The position numbers and the translations under genes are program-made. Below, piece after piece: positions 5,276 through 44,602 of a stretch of 64,000 nt of DNA (positions are counted from its first letter, which is position 1; the number at the start of each line of letters is the position of its first letter). Below the pieces are notes generated by a model. That model was given only the letters and a program-made list of their open reading frames with translations. It was not told the origin of the DNA and made no database searches. Origin of the DNA: a virus (lineage: Duplodnaviria; Caudoviricetes); IMG/VR virus record IMGVR_UViG_3300020016_000005, positions 5,587 through 69,586 of that record. One strand, 5' to 3'.

Positions 5276-6000
5276 TGCCACTTCAGTTCTCTACCGCTTC
5301 CGAGGAATCTTTCTCCAATGGAATCAAAGTGCTTGTCTACGGGGGTGCGGGAGTTGGGAGAACAGTTCTTACTGCCACACTCCCAACTCCGGTTCTGATC
5401 TCTGCGGAGTCCGGTTTGCTATCTCTTCGCGAATCTAACCTGAGACGTCTATTTGGTAATGATCAATCTATCTGTTACAATATGCCGATCATTACCATTA
5501 AGACGGCAGACGACTTACGAGACGCACATCTCTGGTGTCTACAAAGTGCAGAAGCTCGTAACTTCCAGAGCGTTGGATTAGACAGCATAACCGAGATTGG
5601 TGAAGTTGTTCTCAACAATGCCAAGCGACAAGTGAAAGATCCAAGACAGGCCTACGGGGAACTGATCGAAAAAATGGAAACCTTAATCAGAGCCTTCCGG
5701 GATCTCCAAGGTAAGAACGTACTCGTCTCCGCAAAGATGGAGCCGATGAAGGATGAATTATCTGGCATCGTTAAGTACGGTCCGTCAATGCCGGGCGCTA
5801 AACTTGGACCGAAGCTACCTTACTTCTTCGACGAAGTCTTTCGTCTTGGGGTTGGGAAAGATCCAACGACTCAGCAGGAGTTTCGTTTCCTGCAAACGCA
5901 ACCTGACCTTCAGTTTGAGGCGAAGGATAGAAGCGGGGCCCTCGCAAATGTGGAGCCTCCGCATCTAAGCTATGTCTTCAACAAGATCATCAACTCGTAA
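5272..6000 (+). CDS. AAA_24/Sak4-like ATPase (single-strand annealing module)
   Basis: VLVYGGAGVGRT, ISAESGLLSL, GLDSITEI, LPYFFDEV and AKDRSG motifs; lies next to the SSB gene. Confidence 0.8.
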   Translation: MMPLQFSTASEESFSNGIKVLVYGGAGVGRTVLTATLPTPVLISAESGLLSLRESNLRRLFGNDQSICYNMPIITIKTADDLRDAHLWCLQSAEARNFQSVGLDSITEIGEVVLNNAKRQVKDPRQAYGELIEKMETLIRAFRDLQGKNVLVSAKMEPMKDELSGIVKYGPSMPGAKLGPKLPYFFDEVFRLGVGKDPTTQQEFRFLQTQPDLQFEAKDRSGALANVEPPHLSYVFNKIINS

Positions 6001-31362: not shown

Positions 31363-32715
31363 TTATGGGATGAACTGTCCACCCGAACTCGCGCTACCAG
31401 GTATGTTACCTGGTATTGTATGTCCAACCATGTTGATAATGGCATTCTCCGCAACGAAATATTGAATGCCAGTACAATTACTGACGAGCAGATCTGTACA
31501 ACCCCAGTCCATGACACCCAGAGACGTACACCAGAAGAATACCGCACCTGCATTCATGCGAATGTTTGAGAAGTGCCAGAAGCCTGTCTCTCCCAAAAGA
31601 AGATAGGTATGTCCAGTTGATCCGTGACCGTAACAGACAACAGCTCCACCCATTATATGGTTATTGCCAAGGAAACGATTGTTACCTTTGAACTGAGCAA
31701 ACTCTCCATCCGCACAGTCAACGAAACGTGAACGCGGATTATCGACCATCATCTCGAACTGGCAATTGTTCACAAAGACGCGAGACCCCATAGCACGAAC
31801 GCCTGCCATCTGGTCTGGTCCCGCATGGGCCATCTCAAATGTTACACCCATGAACGACATGCTTGCAATCGATTCCATCCACATACAAGAATACAGATCA
31901 ATGTGCATGAATGCTGATCTAACTCGATACGAACCCGGATTGTTCTGATCTCCGGTTAGTGACACAGCACCGCCGAACGCACTGATCGACGTACCGTCAT
32001 AAGTACCTGGAATGCCGAGTCGCATATTGATCGAGAACAGAGGTGTGGCCGCATAGCGCGAACCAACTGCGTTCCAAGCGCCAGCAATAGTACGAAACGC
32101 CTTGTCGGGAGTGTTCGCCGTACCATCGCCAGTCGTATCGTTACCGTCTGTGCGAATCCAACAATCAATGCCACCCTTGACCAGAAGGGGAACCTGGCTG
32201 GCAACCATGCCGCAGACATAGAAGTAGCCATTGAGATAACAAATGATGTACGGGATACCTGCACGCAGGTCAAGTCGCTCGAGGTGCTGTCCATCGTTGC
32301 GCAGAAGATAGACCCCGCCCAGACCGTTAATATTGATTGTGACAATAGCCTGGTTAGTTGTCTCCGGAACAACAGTTAGCGTCATGAAATTGTTGTAGCG
32401 TGTGGCTACCGGATCGAGGCCAGCCGAGTAATTATTCGGCCCTCCCGTCAGATATGTGGATCGAGCCAATCCACGTTGATTGATATATCGTACTGCCCTT
32501 TCGATGTGATCAAGACGGGAGCAATCGTATTGCAACTCTCCCTTCATAATCAGATTCATATCCTCAGCCAACATCGCGTTGGCTGCGGCTGGATCGAACC
32601 GTGGCTGACAGCGACTGGTGCTGTACCACAGTTCATGACATCCGGCAGGGGTGTTTACGTCGATGCTATTCTTGGCGTCTGCTGCCGGAACGCCACTGTC
32701 TGGGAACATGGGCAT
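31363..32715 (-). CDS. tail spike / receptor-binding protein with Cys anchor and probable beta-helix C-terminus
   Basis: GNDTTGDGT...AFRTI motif and beta-rich tail; N-terminus similar to the 42487 protein. Confidence 0.7.
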   Translation of the reverse strand: MPMFPDSGVPAADAKNSIDVNTPAGCHELWYSTSRCQPRFDPAAANAMLAEDMNLIMKGELQYDCSRLDHIERAVRYINQRGLARSTYLTGGPNNYSAGLDPVATRYNNFMTLTVVPETTNQAIVTININGLGGVYLLRNDGQHLERLDLRAGIPYIICYLNGYFYVCGMVASQVPLLVKGGIDCWIRTDGNDTTGDGTANTPDKAFRTIAGAWNAVGSRYAATPLFSINMRLGIPGTYDGTSISAFGGAVSLTGDQNNPGSYRVRSAFMHIDLYSCMWMESIASMSFMGVTFEMAHAGPDQMAGVRAMGSRVFVNNCQFEMMVDNPRSRFVDCADGEFAQFKGNNRFLGNNHIMGGAVVCYGHGSTGHTYLLLGETGFWHFSNIRMNAGAVFFWCTSLGVMDWGCTDLLVSNCTGIQYFVAENAIINMVGHTIPGNIPGSASSGGQFIP

Positions 32716-32736
32716 GGTTTGTTACTTCCTTTTGTC

Positions 32737-34050
32737 TCAGCTGCGAGCAGCCAGTTGCGCTTCCAACGCGTCGACTTTGGCGCTAAGTTCCTTGACCGCA
32801 TTGATCAGAGCGTAAGTCAGGGCGCTCGGATCAATGTCTCGAATGTCTGCAACCTGAACTCCATCGATCATACCTGGATTTATTACAATCATCTCTGGCA
32901 TAATCGTTTCGACGTCTTGAGCAACAAGACCTATAAATTCTTTATCGGCAATTGCCACCATATAGTGTGGACTGTTTCCATAAGGAGCCACAGGGGCAGT
33001 CTTTGGCGTCGGTATGCGTTTATAATTCTCATCAAGATCGACATGATGTTCTGGTGCTTTGGCTGTGTCATTGCCTCTATATTTGTACCGCACTGGTTGT
33101 ATGGCAAGAATCTGAGCGAGACCTCCTTCGTAGTTTCCTAGTACATTCTTGATGCGTGCATCAGAAGATGCAAACCAAGCACCACCCGCAGGCTTATAAG
33201 CCTGATTTGACCAAGCCTGAACCTTTGCGCCATTGACCCACCACATGGCATCCAAAGAATTTCCATTTCCGTCGGTGTTACCCATTGCCATATAAAAATC
33301 CGGACCTTGAATAGACCAAAGCCCAAATGACGCACCGTTTGAGTGAAAGAGTTGTACACAAGGATTATTATTAGCATAAATTGTGAGACGGCCATAGTTA
33401 CTGAACATGTGACCGTTGAATGTCGACGAGCTGGCACACACAAGAGTGTTCATACGGATCTGGCCTGAATTATCTATGTCTCCTACATTGGAGAGATAAT
33501 TCAGATCGGTACGACCAGCTACTCCCAGAGTAGAATTGATCTGAAGTCCACCCGACATTGTGTCGCCAGTGATATTGACGTAGCGCGCGTCAGCATCACC
33601 TTGACTAATTCCAGTTTGAGAAGGTGGGGGAATTGCAGCAATAGCTTGATCGACATATTGCTTAGTCGAAGCATGCATCGGATCAGTTGGAAGTGCATGC
33701 AATGACAGATAACCCGTCATTGCATCACCGGTAATGTTGACATAGCGTGCGTCTGCAGCAGGCTGACTAATACCAGGCTGCTGTGGTGGAGGAAGCATCT
33801 CGATGACCATATCGACGTAGGCTTTATTGGCGACGTGGTCAGGAACAGTTGGTGTAAATGGATGATAGAGCACACCCTTCATCAAGTCGCCAGTAATGTG
33901 AACAAAGCGAGCGTCAGATTCCTCCTGACTATAAGACGGAGGAACTGGCTTCGCATCCCACCCATACCCATTCCATTTGAACTCAATCTCCGTGAGTGGG
34001 TCCTTGTAGACCTGATCCATCACCGGGTTGGATGGGAAATCGATAGCCAT
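32737..34050 (-). CDS. tail fibre protein with peptidase S74 chaperone domain
   Basis: DFP..WNGYGW N-terminal module; SDARIK..GLVAQDVE..coiled-coil end. Confidence 0.8.
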   Translation of the reverse strand: MAIDFPSNPVMDQVYKDPLTEIEFKWNGYGWDAKPVPPSYSQEESDARFVHITGDLMKGVLYHPFTPTVPDHVANKAYVDMVIEMLPPPQQPGISQPAADARYVNITGDAMTGYLSLHALPTDPMHASTKQYVDQAIAAIPPPSQTGISQGDADARYVNITGDTMSGGLQINSTLGVAGRTDLNYLSNVGDIDNSGQIRMNTLVCASSSTFNGHMFSNYGRLTIYANNNPCVQLFHSNGASFGLWSIQGPDFYMAMGNTDGNGNSLDAMWWVNGAKVQAWSNQAYKPAGGAWFASSDARIKNVLGNYEGGLAQILAIQPVRYKYRGNDTAKAPEHHVDLDENYKRIPTPKTAPVAPYGNSPHYMVAIADKEFIGLVAQDVETIMPEMIVINPGMIDGVQVADIRDIDPSALTYALINAVKELSAKVDALEAQLAARS

Positions 34051-34052
34051 GA

Positions 34053-34424
34053 TCAGATGTCCTGTTTGTCTGTTGTCGTAGTAGCTTGCGCAGAAAGCAT
34101 CGCGACAAAAGCGTCGGTCATAATCTTCATCTGCAACAGAAATGCTACAAAATTTTGTGGAGTGAAACCAGATTGGATTGCGTGTATTGCCTGTGATGCA
34201 TCTTTGACAACTTCGAACGATGCAGATATACCTGCATCGATACGTGCATTTGCATCTCTCTGAACCACAATGGGAGGAGTCGGTGCAGCAGGATTGGGTA
34301 CTCCACCTTCGGAAAGCCACAATTCGTATTCCATGCGATCGGAATTATGCGGATCGGGTGGAATGTGAGCACCGTCGCTTGTGCGAATGACATAGTCGGT
34401 CGTGGTGAGTTGATATTCAGCCAT
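34053..34424 (-). CDS. tail fibre assembly / accessory protein
   Basis: [26 protein letters not shown] motif; TAATG-coupled. Confidence 0.65.
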
Positions 34425-36718
34425 TACAATCTCGCATCGAAACACATGGGATCGGATGACAACCCTGCGGGACCCTGACTCGGTGCGCTTGAATTGTTAA
34501 GATTGCCGAAAGATACACGCGCACCCAATTTCGATATCTGCGAGTTCACAATTGTTGCAATGCCTGGATTTGTAACCGATCCACCAATATTAGATAATTC
34601 CATATAGACAACATCAGACGATGAAAGAAACAACGTCGGCACCACTCGTTTCTGAACTTCAAATGAACCAAAGACCTGTGCTGAGGTTCCTGTACTCCAG
34701 GCTCCAGTCCAACCTGAACCACATTTCTCATAGTAGCGTTTGCAGATCTGCAATTCCTCAGACCAAGGACGAATAAGTCGATGTGTATCCATTGGAGGAA
34801 TGTTACCTGGAACTAACATGACTCCACTGATTCCGGTCTGCATACCTACGGCGGCGACGGGGTTCATCGCACCAATCCCGAAAAAGATCATAAACATGGC
34901 ACCCATCGTATCATCCGTCGTCCATGTGCCTGTCGTCTGCGCCGGGAACGTACCAATACACCACTGAGGCACACCTGCTGCGGCAATCGTTAACCAAATA
35001 TCTTGCATTGTCGATCCCAGGCTATCAGTCAGCCGCACCAATATTTGACCCGTCTGCGGAAAACTCGCTCGGAAGCAAAACGAGATGGGGATCGCGTTTG
35101 CCCCTCCCTGCCTTGCTCTCGCAATCCGCGCTCCCTCGATTGAATGGACAAAATAAATAAGATCACCACCTAAAGATGGCTGCGCTATTGTTGTATTCAT
35201 AATAGCACAATATCTAAATTCAGGCGCATGTCCCGATGGGCCTTGAGTATAGAGGCCAAATGCAGATGATCCGCTTTTGGCTATTTTCCAGCCGTCAGCA
35301 AAATACGTGTTCATTGATCCAGCACCAACTGCAATTCCAGCAGTTCCGACAAACTGATTTATGTCGAACCCACCATTGATGAGTATATTACTACTCATAT
35401 CGATAGTGGCAGGAGCAATCTGTTGTCCTCGACTTTCTATGATCCCCGTATCCCGCCAAATAGCAATAGGAGAGTCGACGGCATTACCAGCATCGTCAAA
35501 ACGAATAAGATTGAAATTCGATCCTTTATTACCTCCGGTATCCAATCCGCTGTCGCCAAGGTTCATCGACCAACGAATAACTCCATTGCTCTGACCTATA
35601 ACAGCACGAGCATTCCCAGACTGACCATTGAGCCAAAGAATTGATTGTGGTTTGGTGATCGAAACTTCGCCATTAAAATTGGAAGCACGAGTTTCACGAT
35701 TGATATTGAGTGCCTGACCTATATAGTTACCATCATTCCTATAACAATGAAGAATGAAACTACGACCACCTGCTCCAGCCGCTCCACCTGTCTCTGCATC
35801 GTTACTGCCAAGCTCCATATTCCAACGTTGAGCCAATGCTTCGTTCATACCTACAACTGACATACCCTGACCAGAAGCAGATGCTATCAATCTCAGAATT
35901 GGAGTTGCTTTCTGAATTGCCAGATCGCCTGTCAACGTACCACCAGTGAGTGGAAGAAATCCGGCACCGACAGCACCATCAACGTATTGCTTGGTCGCGA
36001 TGCCGAGCGGTGCGGTCGGGTTGCCAACAACGGTGGCAAGACCTGTGGCGTTGTTAATACTGAGCGCCGCTCGCAGATTGCTCGACGCATCGACTGCCCA
36101 GATACCAAACTCATAGAGGCTAGGCGTCCCTTGCATTCGGAACAGATATTTCGTCGCGCCAACGCTGTTGAAATAAATATCTGCAGGGGCCGTGGCATTT
36201 AGTGAATTGAGGATCAGGGCGGGGTTGGGGCTTTCGATACCGAGATTACCCGTCATCGTGTCGCCGGCTACATTGACGTAGCGAGCATCGGCTGTGGCTT
36301 GATCGAGACCGCCGCTAGGTCTAGAATCTACATATTGCTTTGTCGCAATTCCAAGAGGAGTCGTCGGGTCTCCCTTGACCGACAACAGCCCAGTGACTCG
36401 ATTGCCGACTAGTGCGTGACCTTGAGCCACACCAGCATCGTTGTAATAGGTGACGTAGAAATCAGCAGCCGGGGTGCCAGCAAGTTGAACGCACCAACGA
36501 TCAATAAAGTCACGTTGACCAAAGATATTGGGTCCTATCGGATCATCAGCAGCCTTAGTGATCTTCAGATCACCTGTCATTGTGTCGCCTGAGACATCAA
36601 CAAAGGAGGCGCTCGAGTCTCCTGGCTTGGCTGCCCAGCCATAGCCGTTCCAGAAGTACGTCACTCCACCGGAGACATATTCTTCTCCGAGTGCTGGCGA
36701 TGGAGGAAAGTCAAACAT
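34424..36718 (-). CDS. tail fibre protein with CBM-like C-terminal domain
   Basis: MFDFP..WNGYGW; GDTMTG and ATKQYVD repeats; [12 protein letters not shown]; [10 protein letters not shown]. Confidence 0.8.
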
Positions 36719-38702
36719 TAGTTCCTGCCTCAAGTGACTCGATACGAGTCATGGCTTCCTGAAGTGCCTTAGTCAGAGCAGCAATCACAGTCATTGGATC
36801 GGGTGACTGGATTGCGTTAGGGTCATCCTTGACAGTGGTCGCTGCGCTTTCAACTAACGTCTCCTGAAGCTCATGCGCAATGAAACCCCATCGTTCTATA
36901 TCATCTCCTGCAAAGAATGGCAGTCCTGTTCTCTGTTCTGTCTCTAGCTGAGAAACAGGAGTGTAGTCTTTATGCGTGTACCTGATCGGTCGTAGCTCCT
37001 TTACAGTATCCCACATAGAAGTAAGACCGACAACATCTTTCTTGATACGGTAATCGGACCCAGCCACTACGTTACCGACATAAACACCACTGATAAAAAG
37101 AGCACCACCTGGCCAGTTAATCGCAAAGACGTAACCTGAGCTAGCACCGCCTGCATTGCAAGCATAACCCTGAGCTGAAGATATATAAGTATCAGAATTG
37201 ATATATCCTCCAGCAACACTGAAACGAGGTGTAAAGCATGTCAACTGATGATCGTTCTGAATCTGAAACCGTGCGCAATAATCTTCACCATGACCTGCAT
37301 ATCGGAAGTCCATGTACTGGACACCCTCAATAGCTGTCACATCAATGATGCTGCCTCCTGCAATACCACCGGCTGTCCCGGTGCAGTTTCCATTGACGTT
37401 TCCGTTGAACGCACCGTTGAAGGATCCTGCATAGACAGCGTTACCTTGAAAACTAACTGTACCAGAAAGATCAATCGACATGCGTACATTGGTTGATGCA
37501 TCACGAATATAATAAGCACCATCTGCCTGTGGCCCGGTGTACCAAGTCCGCGTACCTGTCACAGTTTGCGCTAGACGAGCATGAGCGCCGTTTGCCACAG
37601 TCAGAGAAAGGGAATCTTGTCCTGTGACATTGACTGCCGGTGCAGTCAAGCCACCACTCATAGTGTCGCCGGTTTTTAAGACATAAGAACCGACGCGTGC
37701 ATCGACGTATTGCTTCGTGGCAACACCCAAGGGAACTAAAGGGTCACGTGTGACCTCTACCGTACTGTCTGCTCGTTTGATCGTTAGAGGATTATTGATA
37801 ACGGTACCGGTATCATCACAAGCCTGAATATAGAAATCTGCCCCAGCCCCATAGGCCATCAAGAGATTCCAACGCGCAGACCCACCTCGCATAGCTGTGA
37901 GGTATGTTCCATTGGAATCAATGCCATTAACTGTGATCTTTGGAATAGATTTATCAATGCGAATATCGCCGTCAGTAGTAAGTAGACCTGTCTTACGTGA
38001 AATGTTGATCCCACCGATAGCGGCTGCTGCATCACTATATCGAGCCAAACTAAAATCTGATCCAGTGTCAGCACCAGTCTCAGCTACATTCAATCCAAGA
38101 TTCATACGCCAACGGATCAGGCCGTTATTGGTTCCTTGAATGTACGACGCACCGCTAGTCTTGTTCAGCGTGATGAACGGGTTTGCCATAGTGATATTCA
38201 AAGGACCCGACATCGTATCACCAGTCTTGAGAACATATGAACCAGTTCCCATATGACTGTCGACGTATTGTTTTGTGGCGACTCCTAGAGGAGCTGTCGG
38301 ATCACCTTCTATAGTCACAAGACCGGTCTGGCGACTAATGAGAAGAGGATTGCCGATCCTTCCTCCGGAATCGTCATATCTGGATATTCTAAAATCAGAA
38401 CCTAAATTACTACCTCCTTCGGCAACATTATCTCCTAACACCACAGTCCAGCGAGATAGCCCATCTCTCAAGCCACGAATCTGAGCATCAGGTGCTCCAA
38501 TCCTGTTCAGCCCAAGCCCAGGAGTATCCTTTGAGATAATTAAATCACCGGTCATGATGTCGCCGGAGGTGTTGACGAACTCACCTCCGGTACCACCGGT
38601 ATCATCTTCCATCGCAGCCCAGCCGTACCCGTTCCAGATGTACGAGACACCGTTGGCTGTGTACTCTTGCCCAATGGAAGGTGATGCAGGAAAATCGAAC
38701 AT
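36711..38702 (-). CDS. tail fibre protein with peptidase S74 chaperone domain
   Basis: MFDFP..WNGYGW; SDYRIKK..GFIAHELQE. Confidence 0.8.
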   Translation of the reverse strand: MFDFPASPSIGQEYTANGVSYIWNGYGWAAMEDDTGGTGGEFVNTSGDIMTGDLIISKDTPGLGLNRIGAPDAQIRGLRDGLSRWTVVLGDNVAEGGSNLGSDFRISRYDDSGGRIGNPLLISRQTGLVTIEGDPTAPLGVATKQYVDSHMGTGSYVLKTGDTMSGPLNITMANPFITLNKTSGASYIQGTNNGLIRWRMNLGLNVAETGADTGSDFSLARYSDAAAAIGGINISRKTGLLTTDGDIRIDKSIPKITVNGIDSNGTYLTAMRGGSARWNLLMAYGAGADFYIQACDDTGTVINNPLTIKRADSTVEVTRDPLVPLGVATKQYVDARVGSYVLKTGDTMSGGLTAPAVNVTGQDSLSLTVANGAHARLAQTVTGTRTWYTGPQADGAYYIRDASTNVRMSIDLSGTVSFQGNAVYAGSFNGAFNGNVNGNCTGTAGGIAGGSIIDVTAIEGVQYMDFRYAGHGEDYCARFQIQNDHQLTCFTPRFSVAGGYINSDTYISSAQGYACNAGGASSGYVFAINWPGGALFISGVYVGNVVAGSDYRIKKDVVGLTSMWDTVKELRPIRYTHKDYTPVSQLETEQRTGLPFFAGDDIERWGFIAHELQETLVESAATTVKDDPNAIQSPDPMTVIAALTKALQEAMTRIESLEAGTNV

Positions 38703-38705
38703 CAG

Positions 38706-38888
38706 TTATACTCGTCGTTCAAATTCCGCTTTGGGCTGCGCCGCCCCATTCGTTTTGATATTCTGTTCAGCCTGCTGCATCGAGGCGATAGTCGCTCTCA
38801 ATACAAGTATCTGCATCTGCAGATCACCAAGAAGAAGACGAACGTTCTGTTCGACGTGTTGACTGATAGCCTGCTGCTCATCGTTCAT
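38706..38888 (-). CDS. small coiled-coil tail-associated protein
   Basis: ATGA-coupled, lies within the fibre array. Confidence 0.55.
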   Translation of the reverse strand: MNDEQQAISQHVEQNVRLLLGDLQMQILVLRATIASMQQAEQNIKTNGAAQPKAEFERRV

Positions 38889-39259
38889 TTCTTACCTCGT
38901 TTGAGTTCTTGAACTTCTTTAGCGATCTGTTCGATCGCCAACTGCATCGCTTCTAATGGATTGGGTGGCGGAGGCGGTATCGGTGGAAATGGTACATCAA
39001 CAACCACTCCATCGATATACCGCGCAGACCCTTGTTTAACCAGTAACTCTTTCCACACCTCCTCAGTGATCTCCACAGCTTCCAAAGGTATCTTTGCACT
39101 GCGAGCATTCTCATTCACGGGCGGATAAATGTCATTCGTATAGAATGCCATGGCCCTACCTTCCGTATCGAATAGGCCATAATAGCGCAGAACAAGATCA
39201 GCCATTCCCACTGGTGTCTCAGGAACGATAATTGGCTGTTCTGTCTTCTCATCAGTCAT
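38885..39259 (-). CDS. tail fibre assembly protein-like
   Basis: AFYTNDIYP..IPLEAVEITEEVWKELL pattern typical of Tfa-like N-termini. Confidence 0.65.
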   Translation of the reverse strand: MTDEKTEQPIIVPETPVGMADLVLRYYGLFDTEGRAMAFYTNDIYPPVNENARSAKIPLEAVEITEEVWKELLVKQGSARYIDGVVVDVPFPPIPPPPPNPLEAMQLAIEQIAKEVQELKRGKK

Positions 39260-41376
39260 CAATACCCCCACGCTATATATCTGTATTCCTGAGTAGCCAC
39301 ACCCACAGCTCCACCTGTGTTAACGTATCTTGGTTGAAAGAAAAATCTACTAGGTTCAAACGCCTGACTATTACAAGTGATTGAACCTCCATCTTGCAAC
39401 GCCGCTACACCTGTACAGACTACTCCAATACACAGATTTGGAAATGCTACCGGAAACGTAACCCATCCATTGCCCATACTAACAGGGCATGTACCAAACA
39501 CGAGCATCACTCCGCTAGTCAATCTGAAATAGTTAGAATTGTTCGGACACACTCCTTCATGGAACAGCTTATGGGCAACGCCGCCCATACTCCATCCGCC
39601 GACCTTCCAAAATACATCAGTATCGATACCAAAATTGGCAGCAAATGATCCAGGGCGATGAAATGCCATAAAGGCGCCGTCACCAACACCACCCCCACTC
39701 TTGACTTCCAGTGCCTGTGATCCGGAAGATGCTGCTATCGTGCCTGTACTAAATCCGACACTAGCTTTATTATCCGCACCTAAAAAACCTTTGACAGTAG
39801 CCGCACCATCAACAGTTAGATTTGAATTTAGTCTGACAGGCTTACCAAACAGATTGAGAGTGGCCCCATCGTTCTGTAGATAAGTTCCGCCAGTAGTACC
39901 TAGATAGACAATACCTGTATCATTACCACCATGACACCAGATTCCTCCAGTCGTGAATGAAGCTGATCCACCATACTGAGTAACTGTTCCGTTAAGATTT
40001 ATTGAACCGTTAAGATATATGGTACTATTAGATCGCGTAATCTGAAAAGGTGTACCCAGATATGCACCTGCGTCACTATAACGATGGATCATAAATTCTG
40101 ATCCAGCGTCAGCTCCACTTTCTGAACCAAAATCACCTAATCGTACATGCCAACGATCTACTCCATTCATCTGTCCAACGATTTGATTACCATCAGCGCC
40201 AGTAGCCTTATTGAATATAAGTGCAGGTGAATTAGTATTTATCTGTATCTTCGAACTATAGAATTTAACTATTCCAGCATTATCTATATTCAATCTCTCA
40301 GTCAGCGCACCATTATCGATCTTCGTATAGAACTGAAGTATGCCACCTCTATTACCAGCTGTTCCAACAGCTGAACCAATGATACCTGCAACTTGTTTAT
40401 TAACTACAGGAGTATTGGTATCCGCGATGAAACCAACGTGGCCAACGACACTATTTGACGCATCTAATCCACTAGCTAACTCTAGATATCCTCGATCTGT
40501 AGGATTATAGACAGTAAGGTGATTCTTAAATGTAGGAAGAACAGATGAAACTATACCTGGAGTAGATGTTCCCACTCCAACATGACCCTCTGGAAGAATA
40601 GTTAACTGAGTCTTAAGTACACCAGCATTCCAAAGACTGAACTCCATACGGCCTGAAGCATCATTATTATGCCTGGATACACCAATAGTTCCAATTCGTT
40701 TATCCGCAGCAGTGTTTGATTGATTGCTAAATGAAATGTGACCAACAGGAAAATTCGTTGTGCTGTTACCAGTAAGATCAAGAGCAGCAAGTGAATTAGG
40801 TACATTATCAGATCTGATATTCAATACGCGCGCAGGAGCAGTATATATTGAAAATATCGATGGAGTAACACCACCAAGACTTGCATTTCCAGTTATTCCA
40901 TCAATATGAAATAATGTAGTAAGTACTCCATCAGTTGGAGTTGACCCGGCACCATGCCTTACAAATTTGAAACCTACTGGACCCTCATTCGCAATCAAAA
41001 GGTTATATGATGGAAATGCAGGGTATGTCTTTATCCCGCTCAGTACACCCGCATTGGATAGTTCAACACGACCACCCTGTCCGATACCGGATTGTTGGGC
41101 TCCCGCCACAGCATTGCTGTATGCTTGAAATTGATGATTTGCATCTACATAAACTCGTAGAACACCGCTATTCGTTATATTGAGAGCGCCGGTCATAAGA
41201 TCGCCGGCAGCGTTAACAAACCGGGCGTCACTCTCTGACTTGTTATAGGCGTCTATTACTTCCCCACTCGTATCTTCTTCGATCTTGATTGCCCAACCAT
41301 AGCCATTCCAGACATAGCTCACGCCGCCAGACGTGTACTCCTGACCTGGAACTGGACCGGACGGGAAGTCAAACAT
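39259..41376 (-). CDS. long tail fibre protein (gp53-like C-terminus)
   Basis: MFDFP..WNGYGW; AFMAFHRPG..FGIDTD..KVGGWSMG; VTFPVAFPN..YRYIAWGY. Confidence 0.8.
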   Translation of the reverse strand: MFDFPSGPVPGQEYTSGGVSYVWNGYGWAIKIEEDTSGEVIDAYNKSESDARFVNAAGDLMTGALNITNSGVLRVYVDANHQFQAYSNAVAGAQQSGIGQGGRVELSNAGVLSGIKTYPAFPSYNLLIANEGPVGFKFVRHGAGSTPTDGVLTTLFHIDGITGNASLGGVTPSIFSIYTAPARVLNIRSDNVPNSLAALDLTGNSTTNFPVGHISFSNQSNTAADKRIGTIGVSRHNNDASGRMEFSLWNAGVLKTQLTILPEGHVGVGTSTPGIVSSVLPTFKNHLTVYNPTDRGYLELASGLDASNSVVGHVGFIADTNTPVVNKQVAGIIGSAVGTAGNRGGILQFYTKIDNGALTERLNIDNAGIVKFYSSKIQINTNSPALIFNKATGADGNQIVGQMNGVDRWHVRLGDFGSESGADAGSEFMIHRYSDAGAYLGTPFQITRSNSTIYLNGSINLNGTVTQYGGSASFTTGGIWCHGGNDTGIVYLGTTGGTYLQNDGATLNLFGKPVRLNSNLTVDGAATVKGFLGADNKASVGFSTGTIAASSGSQALEVKSGGGVGDGAFMAFHRPGSFAANFGIDTDVFWKVGGWSMGGVAHKLFHEGVCPNNSNYFRLTSGVMLVFGTCPVSMGNGWVTFPVAFPNLCIGVVCTGVAALQDGGSITCNSQAFEPSRFFFQPRYVNTGGAVGVATQEYRYIAWGY

Positions 41377-42476
41377 CAGATCTTCTTTCCAAGTAGCTTC
41401 AACAACGCAGATTCAAGCTCACTGACACGTTTTCGTAGTGCCTTCATCTCTTGAAGCAGAATTGGAACATACTTGGAATAGTCAACACCCCAAAAGTCAT
41501 AACCCTCAGTCACCTTGACATGAGTGACCGCCATTGGATAAACTGTGATTGCCTGCTGAGCAATGACACCATAGCTGCGATCTGTGGTCCCCTTCCATGC
41601 AAAATCATAGACGTTGGTGCTGTCAATGATGCGCCCGGAATCAAAGTCTCGAAGATCCTCTTTATGTTCTCCACTTGATCCGGTATTGTAGGCCACAGCA
41701 ATTGGTGTCTGATAGATGTTCCCAATGGCAGTTCCCGCAGCATTGTAGAACAGGAGAGCAGTAGTCTCATCAGCCGCTGGTCGAAGAGCAATACCGTTCT
41801 GAACAGCAGCGCCTGGATAACTGATCTTAAGCCCGGCTGCCAAGGTTGGCATCGGATCAGGACCAATCTCGATAGGCGCACCAAATCTTGAGATGCCTGT
41901 AGCGCGACTTATCTTCAGAACAGGAGTTCCAATAATGACACCGGGATCGTCATAACGATAAATCGTAAGATCACTTCCCGTACCTCCGCCACTTTCTACA
42001 GCTTGATCACCTGGTTGAATAATCCAGCGGCGTGTACTATTGACCATGCCGACCAGACCACCGGCCGCAGCTTCGGTGTTATTCAGATATAGACCTGGAG
42101 ATCCCTTACTGATGATAATGTCACCAGACATGTTACCGCCGACGAGAGGTAGATATTCGCCTGTCGCTCCGCCACCTGTATTTCCACCGCTGTTGACCTG
42201 AACCCATTGCTTGGAGTTCCCATCGTCATAATAGAACCAGAGAACTCCTGAGTCAGTCTCCCACCACAATTGACCAGGTGCGGGAGCCATTGGAGGAGCG
42301 TCACCAATGGCAATACCTCCACCAATCAATTTTCGTTCTGATGGATCAATCGACGATGGAACACCAACCCAAAGCCTAGTTGGATTAGCCATCTCGATAG
42401 AAAGTTCGCCTGGCAAAAGTCCGATCGGACTGGAACCGGGTACTGAAGTTCTTTTGATCTGGATAGGTACGACCAT
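41376..42476 (-). CDS. tail fibre/adaptor protein with S74-like C-terminus
   Basis: IQIKRTS..PGELSI; GQLWWETD module; GVIAQ..DYSKYVPILLQEMK. Confidence 0.75.
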   Translation of the reverse strand: MVVPIQIKRTSVPGSSPIGLLPGELSIEMANPTRLWVGVPSSIDPSERKLIGGGIAIGDAPPMAPAPGQLWWETDSGVLWFYYDDGNSKQWVQVNSGGNTGGGATGEYLPLVGGNMSGDIIISKGSPGLYLNNTEAAAGGLVGMVNSTRRWIIQPGDQAVESGGGTGSDLTIYRYDDPGVIIGTPVLKISRATGISRFGAPIEIGPDPMPTLAAGLKISYPGAAVQNGIALRPAADETTALLFYNAAGTAIGNIYQTPIAVAYNTGSSGEHKEDLRDFDSGRIIDSTNVYDFAWKGTTDRSYGVIAQQAITVYPMAVTHVKVTEGYDFWGVDYSKYVPILLQEMKALRKRVSELESALLKLLGKKI

Positions 42477-42486
42477 CTATATGTCC

Positions 42487-43656
42487 TCAGTACGTTCCAC
42501 CGTCGATCGACACTAGTTCAAGTCCAGACGTTGAAAGACCGTTACCGCGCAGTGCTGTAATAGAATTAGGAGCAATCGTGATACCGGTGAAAGTGATAGG
42601 ACTGGCTGCTTGTCCATTTCCAGTCAACTCGGGTGCTGTCACAGCAACGATAGGATTGGCAATCGCTGCATCTTGTTCTGTATTCTTGGCATCGAGTGCC
42701 ACGAGAGCTTCTTGGACATCGTCAGCTCCGGCTACAGCCGGAGAAACAATAACAGCAGAAGCTGTGACCGTAGACATAGGTCCAAATGGAAGATGTGTCC
42801 ATTCAACACCGTCGGAGAGCAGCCAGTCACTCTTCTCGTAGTTTGGAAGACCATTAATGGTACCGCCCGGAGGAACTGAACCAGCCGTATCACAGATAAG
42901 ATACCAACCTTTATTAGCAAGCGCCGGAACAGGCAAAACGTTACCGCTCATACCAGACGTTGCGGTCCATACAATCGATCCATCATCAGCAGCGAACGAT
43001 CCAACAAATTCGCTAGATGCAGCTAGAGCATCAACTGCTCCCTTCAACTCGTTAATAGCCGGAACGATCTTTGGAGTCAAACTTGCATCGATTTGATCAA
43101 CCCTGAGCCCAGTGAGAGCCATAGTATTGAACGGGGTTCCGAACGCTTCATTAGTAGCGCCGGCGATCATCTCCGTCTCAGTAGCAGCACGCACAACGTC
43201 GCCGCTCTCACCACTCTGGGTTCCGTTGACCTTCACCCACTGAGTGGAATTGCCGTCATTGTACCAGAGCCACATTACTGCGGTATCACTCTCCCACCAC
43301 AGTTGGTTCGGCTGCGGATTTGGCGGAGGTGTATCACTGACGACAACAAACTTGAGGTGAAGCAATCCCCAGGCGGTAAACGATGCACACAGGTTCTTGA
43401 GCGAGCTGCAATCCCAAGGTCCATCAGGATCGAGACATTCCGCAAAGCTGAGCAGCTCCGAAACAATCGCGTTGACCTGCTTCGGTTCTATCCGCGCATC
43501 GCAGTCTGCCGGAAGTGCTGTCAACTCGCAGTTAGACAGGAACGCAGGCAGAGGTGGATAGGCGTTCTGCACATCAGGTGGATGAGTGGGATTACCCGCC
43601 GCATCGCGGTAAACGACTGCACCTGCGGTTTCGAGCTCTGGAAGAATACCTGGCAT
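42487..43656 (-). CDS. baseplate-attached tail fibre/adaptor protein
   Basis: Follows the wedge gene; Cys anchor; QLWWESD module; RAATETE motif. Confidence 0.7.
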   Translation of the reverse strand: MPGILPELETAGAVVYRDAAGNPTHPPDVQNAYPPLPAFLSNCELTALPADCDARIEPKQVNAIVSELLSFAECLDPDGPWDCSSLKNLCASFTAWGLLHLKFVVVSDTPPPNPQPNQLWWESDTAVMWLWYNDGNSTQWVKVNGTQSGESGDVVRAATETEMIAGATNEAFGTPFNTMALTGLRVDQIDASLTPKIVPAINELKGAVDALAASSEFVGSFAADDGSIVWTATSGMSGNVLPVPALANKGWYLICDTAGSVPPGGTINGLPNYEKSDWLLSDGVEWTHLPFGPMSTVTASAVIVSPAVAGADDVQEALVALDAKNTEQDAAIANPIVAVTAPELTGNGQAASPITFTGITIAPNSITALRGNGLSTSGLELVSIDGGTY

Positions 43657-43657
43657 T

Positions 43658-44602
43658 TCAGCAGCCCCGTGTGATGTTAGGTGGGCAACTTGTAGGAAGC
43701 ATCGAACGAATGATGCATTCTGCGGCTAGAACTCCCGGCCATATCTGATCAGGAAGACCCGCTGGTTTGTCACAAGCGCGATCCCACACTGCTGAAACTT
43801 TATCAGGAGGTTGATTCACTTCGCAGATATCTCCAGACCCTACTCCCTCGAGCCAGTCTTGACTATGAATAATCTGAAATGCAACATCTGAACAGTTATA
43901 CACATCGCACGGATCAGGTAGCGATTGATCAGGAGCGGGAGGTGGATAGATTGGTACGATCTTGGCACCAAGAGGTTCAATGATCCAATTTAGACCGCAT
44001 AGGTTTTTGATTATCCCCATGTTGGCTCTACTTAGGGCAGTGACGATTCCTTTCTTAACCGCAGCTTCTAGTTCGGGTGGAAAATCAACTTCACAAAACA
44101 CAGGACCACATTCAGTCCAGATCTCGTAAGGAGTCAGTTCTCCAAGTAGAACAGAACGACAATGTTGACGATAACAATCTTCCCAATGCAGACGCGCAAG
44201 ATGCGCGTCGAGTGTAGTAACGGCCGTGGTGGGATTGCTCTCCCTAAAAGCAGGCCAAAGCGCATTGTGAACGACATGACGTAATCTAAGAACTGTATAG
44301 ATAGCATGCAAGATCAAAGACGGACAAGATGGATCTTTGACAATAGGACATTCAGCAGGATCATCATTTCTTTCGAAATAACTGATCGCAGCCGCCTTCC
44401 AATAGTCCCACATAGGTCCAGAAGGAAGTAGATTAAAGAATGCCACAAAGGTACAGCACAGATCATTTCCACAAAGCGGAGGAGGACAACAGCCCTCATA
44501 CTCAGGTACTCTAAATGGAACACATCCATCCGCACCCAGTATAGTAACTGGTATCATCGCCATTGGCGGCGTACCGCTTAATGGCGGAGAAGATCTCAAC
44601 AT
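43658..44602 (-). CDS. baseplate wedge protein (Mu gp48-like position)
   Basis: Follows baseplate J; LLPSGPMWD motif; about 20 Cys; start may be 44563. Confidence 0.7.
   Translation of the reverse strand: MLRSSPPLSGTPPMAMIPVTILGADGCVPFRVPEYEGCCPPPLCGNDLCCTFVAFFNLLPSGPMWDYWKAAAISYFERNDDPAECPIVKDPSCPSLILHAIYTVLRLRHVVHNALWPAFRESNPTTAVTTLDAHLARLHWEDCYRQHCRSVLLGELTPYEIWTECGPVFCEVDFPPELEAAVKKGIVTALSRANMGIIKNLCGLNWIIEPLGAKIVPIYPPPAPDQSLPDPCDVYNCSDVAFQIIHSQDWLEGVGSGDICEVNQPPDKVSAVWDRACDKPAGLPDQIWPGVLAAECIIRSMLPTSCPPNITRGC

Follow-up and report, generated by a model that had tools for sequence, protein, structure and literature searches.

Two recurring modules in a tandem array of fibre genes suggest a branched adsorption apparatus in a relative of Agrobacterium phage Milano

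The stretch of DNA analysed here (the window; 64,000 nucleotides, positions 5,587 to 69,586 of the IMG/VR record IMGVR_UViG_3300020016_000005) makes up almost the whole of a viral contig of 69.6 kb, whose completeness is about 99%. Genes for tape measure, hub and wedge proteins are followed by nine open reading frames (ORFs) on the minus strand, from 43656 down to 31363, and it is this array of fibre genes, in which two short sequence modules recur, that is described in the present work. An earlier note on the same sequence had counted eight genes; the array consists of seven fibre-like genes (F1 to F7) and two small genes, of 128 amino acids (aa) after F3 and 130 aa after F5. The coordinates given in that note all hold (starts at 41376, 38702, 36718 and 34050 on the minus strand). 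The two modules are called D and W, and gp31 is the short tail fibre protein of phage Milano. The features are as follows.

43658-44602, minus strand: BW3, a Cys-rich baseplate wedge protein homologous to Milano gp30 (tblastn, 39% identity, E 1e-58), directly upstream of the array
42487-43656, minus strand: F1, putative anchored fibre of 389 aa, with gp31-like anchor, W bead, insert of about 215 aa and conserved C-terminal tail
43351-43656, minus strand: F1 N-domain, residues 1-102, gp31-like (weak HMMER match to 9rkv_G and 8fqc_S1, E 0.02-0.09)
43222-43350, minus strand: F1 W bead, residues 103-145, SDTPPPNPQPNQLWWESD...DGNSTQWV (76.4 bits against a 45-sequence W profile)
42490-42564, minus strand: F1 C-terminal tail, ...SIDGGTY, common by alignment to the short adaptor versions of F1 (176-256 aa) in related phages
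41376-42476, minus strand: F2, fibre of 366 aa, with IQIKR-type N-domain (1-53), W (54-95), shaft repeat and Peptidase_S74 (267-317)
42192-42317, minus strand: F2 W bead, residues 54-95 (77.6 bits against the W profile)
39259-41376, minus strand: F3, putative D-plug fibre of 705 aa with a Gp53-like_C tip; D at residues 1-32 (nucleotides 41281-41376, 60.9 bits)
38885-39271, minus strand: tail-fibre-assembly-like ORF of 128 aa (phrog_188, tail fiber assembly protein, E 6.6e-6), overlapping the end of F3
36711-38702, minus strand: F4, putative D-plug fibre of 663 aa with a Peptidase_S74 tip; D at nucleotides 38607-38702 (63.3 bits)
34424-36718, minus strand: F5, putative D-plug fibre of 764 aa from the ATG named in the earlier note; D at nucleotides 36620-36718 (56.6 bits)
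34053-34445, minus strand: ORF of 130 aa after F5 (phrog_20370 and phrog_34019, function unknown)
32737-34050, minus strand: F6, putative D-plug fibre of 437 aa from its ATG with a Peptidase_S74 tip; D at nucleotides 33946-34050, a divergent subtype (54.2 bits)
31363-32715, minus strand: F7, second putative anchored fibre, of 450 aa, with a gp31-like N-domain at about residues 1-80 (nucleotides 32476-32715), no W and a Cys-rich body

The stop of F2 and the start of F3 overlap by one base. The whole array had no megablast match among 50,697 phage records, and the ten proteins had none in NCBIfam; at least five contigs of viral origin, taken from different metagenomes, carry the array with its gene order unchanged.

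One N-terminal module, D (about 33 aa), opens F3, F4, F5 and F6, as had been noticed from the sequence before; 12 of 40 alignment columns are invariant and the four N-termini score 54-63 bits against a 45-sequence D profile. The other module, W (about 42 aa and named WWESD in the earlier note), is common to F1 and F2, where 24 of 57 columns are invariant and the scores are 76-78 bits. Among the invariant residues are F4, P5, W23 and W28 in D, and the WW pair and the QW in W. A profile scan of the remaining array genes found neither D nor W outside F1-F6. The DNA encoding D in F3-F6 varies at many synonymous sites (mean column identity 66%), and these differences rule out recent gene conversion as the source of the shared N-termini. 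Because the DNA differs at synonymous positions, the D peptide is maintained by selection.

The two modules co-occur across phages. Counts are de-duplicated by sequence and come from about 200 sampled IMG/VR contigs. In 79 viral loci found with D as seed, D is always N-terminal, W is also present in 69, and 36 of the loci have two to five D genes. Seeding with a degenerate DNA pattern for the W bead, which is blind to D (a two-sequence W seed gave 22 loci), revealed 116 loci, in 84 of which a W-only gene has a D gene downstream, with a median gap of 15 nucleotides. The remaining W-seeded loci comprise 24 with less than 1.5 kb of contig left, six with W solely inside D proteins and two real exceptions.

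The order of the genes follows a rule. For unique proteins, with contig ends excluded, the next gene starts with D after 103 of 126 W-only proteins and 46 of 51 proteins with both modules (D+W), as compared with 42 of 141 that have D only; in the assessable cases a protein bearing W is followed by a gene starting with D in 82-90%, versus 30% after D-only proteins. This 'W then D' pairing is near-obligate. W is mostly lost in the last D gene of an array, with 4 of 51 such genes having it versus 41 of 77 of the D genes before them (Fisher p 5e-8). D genes and W proteins are equally many in 37 of 55 complete arrays, and the number of D genes scales with the number of W beads (Spearman rho 0.76); the pattern 'W D' is seen 26 times in these arrays and 'WW D D' five times. 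Overall, D is N-terminal in 290 of 294 cases.

In W-only proteins, W lies one to three residues behind at least three unrelated anchors, namely the T7 gp17 N-domain, the gp31 N-domain and the IQIKR domain, none of which was found in D proteins. F1 has the same spacing, shared with 10 unique homologues. Eleven of 86 W-only proteins end five or fewer residues past the bead with a D gene next, and some are only about 70-90 aa long, ending zero to four residues after the bead, again with a D gene next. In related contigs (L016, L017, L019, L022, L035, L050 and L194), F1 is cut to a short adaptor of 176-256 aa that holds the gp31-like anchor, one or two W beads and a 30-aa tail (...VDCGVY). Each short adaptor is followed by proteins of 88-110 aa and about 150 aa that open with D, and the D module of F6 groups with these small D proteins (weak tree, 40 residues).

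D and W are also present in the cultured cyanophages P-SSM2, S-RSM4, S-CAM4, MA01 and S-TIP28. The T7-like cyanopodovirus S-TIP28 encodes gp49, annotated as a tail fibre, with a Phage_T7_tail domain (E 3.5e-18), W (133-171) and a beta-helix; the next gene product, gp50, has D (1-32) and a pectate-lyase helix, without the T7 anchor. Podoviruses with two tailspikes have the same layout, the second spike being hung on the first one. In MA01 and other T4-like cyanophages, a gene for a W-only protein and then several D genes in a row lie next to the wedge genes. D is conserved in phages whose tails are unrelated (Milano-like, T4-like and T7-like). Apart from gp49 and gp50, an annotated structural protein of 115 aa in S-TIP28 (L228, 9695-10042) opens with a D-like module, FPSNPSLGDQYTEAGTTYEWFG.

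By its sequence, the window comes from an uncultured myophage whose relatives include the Agrobacterium phages Milano and 7-7-1. Its baseplate J-like protein matches only phages Milano, 7-7-1 and OLIVR4 of Agrobacterium and two Synechococcus phages (43-46% identity), and each of Milano gp25-gp30 has a homologue, the identity to the Milano proteins being 36-45%. The Cys-rich baseplate is homologous to those of Milano (8fqc) and 7-7-1 (9rkv) at 32-45% identity. The F1 gene follows the BW3 gene directly, as does the gp31 gene in Milano. No homologues of the Milano tailspike gp124 or the garland proteins gp125-127 were found in this phage by tblastn. This lineage was absent from the earlier note, as were the gp31-like anchor of F1 and F7 and the likeness of D to W.

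In Milano, residues 1-81 of gp31 bind the BW2 dimer, twelve short tail fibres are arranged in six pairs, and gp31 Cys38 has disulfides with BW2 C224/C302/C367 and BW3 C147 (PMC10811340). The N-domain of F7 matches gp31 (8fqc_S1, 'Short Tail Fibers, gp31'; HMMER E 0.003; tblastn with Milano gp31, E 2e-5). The match of F1 alone is weak, as listed above; the F1 family of 10 homologues retains the same motif. gp31 C29/C38/C67 align with C43/C52/C83 of F1, which are invariant in the 10 homologues, and with C26/C36/C65 of F7. On the baseplate side, BW2 C231/C313/C384 and BW3 C165 correspond to Milano BW2 C224/C302/C367 and BW3 C147, and six of the seven Milano disulfide cysteines of BW3 are kept, including C147, the partner of Cys38 of the short tail fibre. 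Since the gp31-like N-domain and all the relevant cysteines are conserved, F1 and F7 are probably direct baseplate fibres that are covalently locked by disulfides. At the paired sites of the short tail fibre, F7 is probably the second species of fibre, with F1 and F7 possibly occupying one each of the two gp31 sites per wedge. Milano differs in having a single short tail fibre species at both wedge sites, plus the tailspike gp124 and the garland of gp125/127; the phage described here has two distinct fibres with a gp31-like anchor, five more fibres besides, and the modules D and W, neither of which was found in the regions of Milano examined.

F2 has a different type of N-domain (IQIKR...) and contains no cysteine, and F7 has 13 cysteines and a body without a family match. 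BW3 C85 corresponds to Milano C69, which bonds the tailspike in Milano, and is kept here though the gp124 homologue is absent; the site at the sheath-baseplate junction may be empty or may be used by another fibre such as F2. The gp31 docking domain has two helices per chain, bundled as six in the trimer; the AlphaFold2 model of full-length F1 (10-sequence alignment) has helices at 58-75 and 83-100 and is unusable, with a mean pLDDT (predicted local distance difference test) of 31.7. The two 'bead-like domains' of Milano gp31 were considered as W beads and rejected, as hhalign shows no similarity.

The tips of the fibres differ, as had been reported in the earlier note. Pfam hits above the gathering scores (PF13884, 22 bits; PF21882, 24.9 bits) are Peptidase_S74 (PF13884) near the C-terminus of F2 (30.4 bits), F4 (25.7 bits) and F6 (33.2 bits) and Gp53-like_C (PF21882) at residues 618-705 of F3 (31.1 bits). 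The 'CBM-like' (carbohydrate-binding module) tip proposed in the same place was confirmed by no tool. F3 also matches the gp47 tail fiber in PDB entry 9b45 (E 8.5e-10). In the shafts of F2, F3 and F5, the repeat RW..G....E.GG..GS.F.I.RY.D.G has a match in 8ojn, a predation fibre of Bdellovibrio (E 3e-5 to 2e-4; F2 shaft, E 3e-5); the PDB match of F5 is confined to this repeat and the fold of its tip is unassigned. These fibres are therefore like the Bdellovibrio 'mosaic adhesive trimer' fibres and S74-chaperoned phage fibres in the shaft (F2/F3/F5) and the chaperone ends (F2/F4/F6), a likeness that is limited to shaft and tip and does not extend to D and W.

The 128-aa ORF fits the Tfa chaperones in its profile match and its place directly after a fibre gene, and is probably the chaperone of F3; the 130-aa ORF is possibly that of F5, judging by position. 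Compared with the sibling phage (L013), the centre of F3 is only 18-38% identical while both ends are about 90%, and F5 has two variable stretches (36-54%); the flanks and neighbouring genes are 86-100% identical to L013, and F1 is 93-94% identical across the sibling contigs. By these comparisons, the internal stretches of F3 and F5 are putative local hot spots where receptor-binding parts diversify or are exchanged.

D and W are undescribed yet very widespread modules, with no curated family or solved structure. Searches with the isolated modules and N-domains revealed nothing meaningful in Pfam at E up to 10; D and W had no match in NCBIfam and, in profile searches of PDB sequences, only chance-level rows. 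The statement that the pairing has no structural description holds as far as PDB sequence searches go. PHROGs reach W only within the unnamed 'tail fiber' families phrog_9729 and phrog_3304. A D profile has matches in 14,554 protein clusters at E ≤0.001 in a library of 1.84 billion proteins, internal bead repeats being counted in. Single full-length D matches in this library begin at residue 1, and the top matches have up to 17 internal D-like beads. Library proteins P0002 and P0008 are long, and their 4-17 D-like beads (ISWLG..AP.SP..NQAYYNS.D..SYIWNG..WQ) take turns with GXY runs of the collagen type, and many D+W fibres run on into collagen-like repeats.

An AlphaFold2 model of a natural D+W N-terminus has two small beta-units (pLDDT 81.8; predicted template modelling score, pTM, 0.48). 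VIA-align against 48,161 chains gave a best Z of 4.3, which is below the level of a shared fold. Weak fold matches include collagen XV/XVIII trimerisation domains (Z 3.5-3.9) and, for the W region, gp10-like domains (CBA120 TSP4, Foldseek E 0.36; TSP3, Z 4.0); Pfam, PHROG and PDB sequence searches for a gp10-like domain in the W region were negative. The only look-alike of the D bead among solved structures is PhiKZ gp184 (PDB 8y6v chain I), a marginal case to be taken as a lead only (sequence E 0.66; Foldseek E 0.31, probability 0.97, template modelling score 0.74 on target). PhiKZ gp184 is an inner-capsid protein with a 34-residue ordered plug in the capsid complex (PMC11297242).

The reading that we favour, with modest confidence, is that the region encodes a multi-fibre adsorption apparatus in which anchor-less fibres starting with D are carried by anchored fibres bearing W, so as to form a branched complex. 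F1 and F7 would dock on the baseplate through their gp31-like N-domains; F2 has an N-terminal anchor of another kind. F3-F6, which are anchor-less and have D at Met1, would be secondary fibres held by the W-carrying F1 and F2. The socket would be the W bead or its immediate surroundings, and a plausible contact is bead-on-bead packing, as between adjacent beads within one chain. The four D fibres may compete for the W beads of the two kinds or share their occupancy, and F1 may carry F6 while F2 carries F3-F5; this hint is taken from the weak grouping of the F6 D module with the small D proteins behind F1-like adaptors. We infer both the physical contact of D with W and its geometry, and likewise the sharing of two W-bead kinds by four D fibres.

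These results suggest that the hub-and-spoke arrangement proposed in the earlier note, in which D plugs several fibres onto WWESD adaptors, is partly correct and needs amendment. The co-occurrence and the order of W and D agree with it. The picture of the WWESD proteins as adaptor hubs is incomplete: F1 and F7 would dock through a gp31-like anchor, F2 has another N-domain, and F1 and F2 are full fibres with tips of their own. More speculatively, and doubtful as it stands, D and W could be a portable self-complementary connector common to Milano-, T4- and T7-like phages, in which an anchored protein with W offers the socket, D plugs in and D+W proteins daisy-chain.

Several observations weigh against a branched assembly of this kind. 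The sampled loci are phylogenetically non-independent. The bead is mostly mid-chain in W-only proteins (median 291 residues before the C-terminus), so that docking would have to be lateral. This phage has four D fibres versus two W-bearing proteins, unlike most arrays, and F1, with its W, is followed by F2 and not by a D gene. Neither D nor W was found in the regions of Milano and 7-7-1 examined, and these phages therefore give no structural precedent. In hhalign, D and W are related with a probability of 63-76% and share the core PxxPxxGQ-aromatic-G-x-x-Y-x-W; they are probably two forms of one bead, D being the chain-starting form, and not complementary shapes. D-like beads recur internally between collagen-like stretches of long proteins, and may serve collagen-like fibres in general as units of registry or trimerisation. 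D and W may then be generic shaft or trimerisation beads, and tandem duplication within a single fibre family may account for part of the synteny.

The main rival, which we consider rather unlikely, develops this last point: D and W would be generic beads of one fibre family and their pairing a by-product of tandem duplication, the D fibres docking independently while W trimerises the chains or sets their register. In the first copy a tail anchor would have replaced the first bead, and the copies after it would have kept D and lost W; D would dock on the baseplate or the sheath, for instance at the site of Milano gp124, which is absent here. This explains the homology of D and W, and it is in keeping with the collagen-like repeats, the weak matches to collagen trimerisation domains, the presence of four D for two W in this phage and the baseplate sites left free where gp124-127 homologues are missing. 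It does not explain why the last fibre lacks W or why W predicts that the next gene starts with D, neither of which follows from a role in trimerisation. Because D is kept across phages with unrelated tails, it is also unlikely to fit each baseplate, and in the T7-like case the D tailspike of S-TIP28 is without the T7 tail anchor.

An improbable alternative is that D fibres dock elsewhere on the W-carrying proteins, either on the C-terminal tail of the F1 type (...VDCGVY or ...IDGGTY) or on the junction of anchor and bead, with W being a marker of the primary fibre. The tail is kept between the 389-aa and the 176-256-aa forms of F1 despite some 215 residues inserted or lost, and the short adaptors hold little beyond anchor, W and tail. 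However, the tail is restricted to the Milano-like clade while lineages that lack it still obey the W-then-D rule, and the smallest W-only proteins stop almost at the bead with a D gene next. Least probable is that F3-F6 decorate another part of the particle, such as the neck or the capsid vertices: 7-7-1 bears capsid fibres of unknown identity (PMC12796354) and the PhiKZ gp184 look-alike is a capsid-complex plug (PMC11297242), but the PhiKZ match is marginal, D and W are missing from the Milano and 7-7-1 regions examined, the F3-F6 genes lie inside the baseplate-fibre operon and are coupled to F2, and their tips are typical of receptor binding, with S74 or Tfa-type chaperones.

The branched reading finds its closest functional analogues in CBA120 (TSP1-4), G7C (gp63.1/gp66) and the KP32-type and SP6/K1-5-type systems, where one protein is anchored in the tail and the others hang, by a short conserved N-terminus, on a small domain just behind its anchor. 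At the level of genes, S-TIP28 gp49/gp50 repeats this layout using W and D. The branching domains in these systems are T4 gp10-like, whereas W matches them weakly in fold and not at all in sequence; in addition, D and W appear to be one bead in two versions and D+W proteins could chain further. The array is for these reasons likened to the gp10-like branched receptor-binding systems as a functional analogue and not as a member. The joints of the T4 long tail fibre (gp34-gp35-gp36-gp37) are similar in that trimeric segments from neighbouring genes are joined head-to-tail, as might apply to the 11 of 86 W-only proteins that end near the bead. In most cases, F1 and F2 included, the bead is mid-chain, and an end-to-end joint of the T4 type cannot apply to these.

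Branched multi-fibre adsorption complexes are known, and the connectors of which there are descriptions (T4 gp10-like domains and SP6/K1-5 adaptors) account for only some phages. The array would be a new form of these complexes, built from two undescribed modules, a proposal that the present analysis supports in part. If the plug and socket are real, the number of receptor-binding proteins, and which hangs on which, could be predicted from gene order alone; the tandem fibre arrays of metagenomic phages would be explained, and the study of host range would gain a small transferable handle. If D and W were in addition a self-complementary connector, the number of beads would set the number of receptor-binding proteins per virion, in abundant marine cyanophages among others, and the carriers of D and W do include ecologically important cultured cyanophages.

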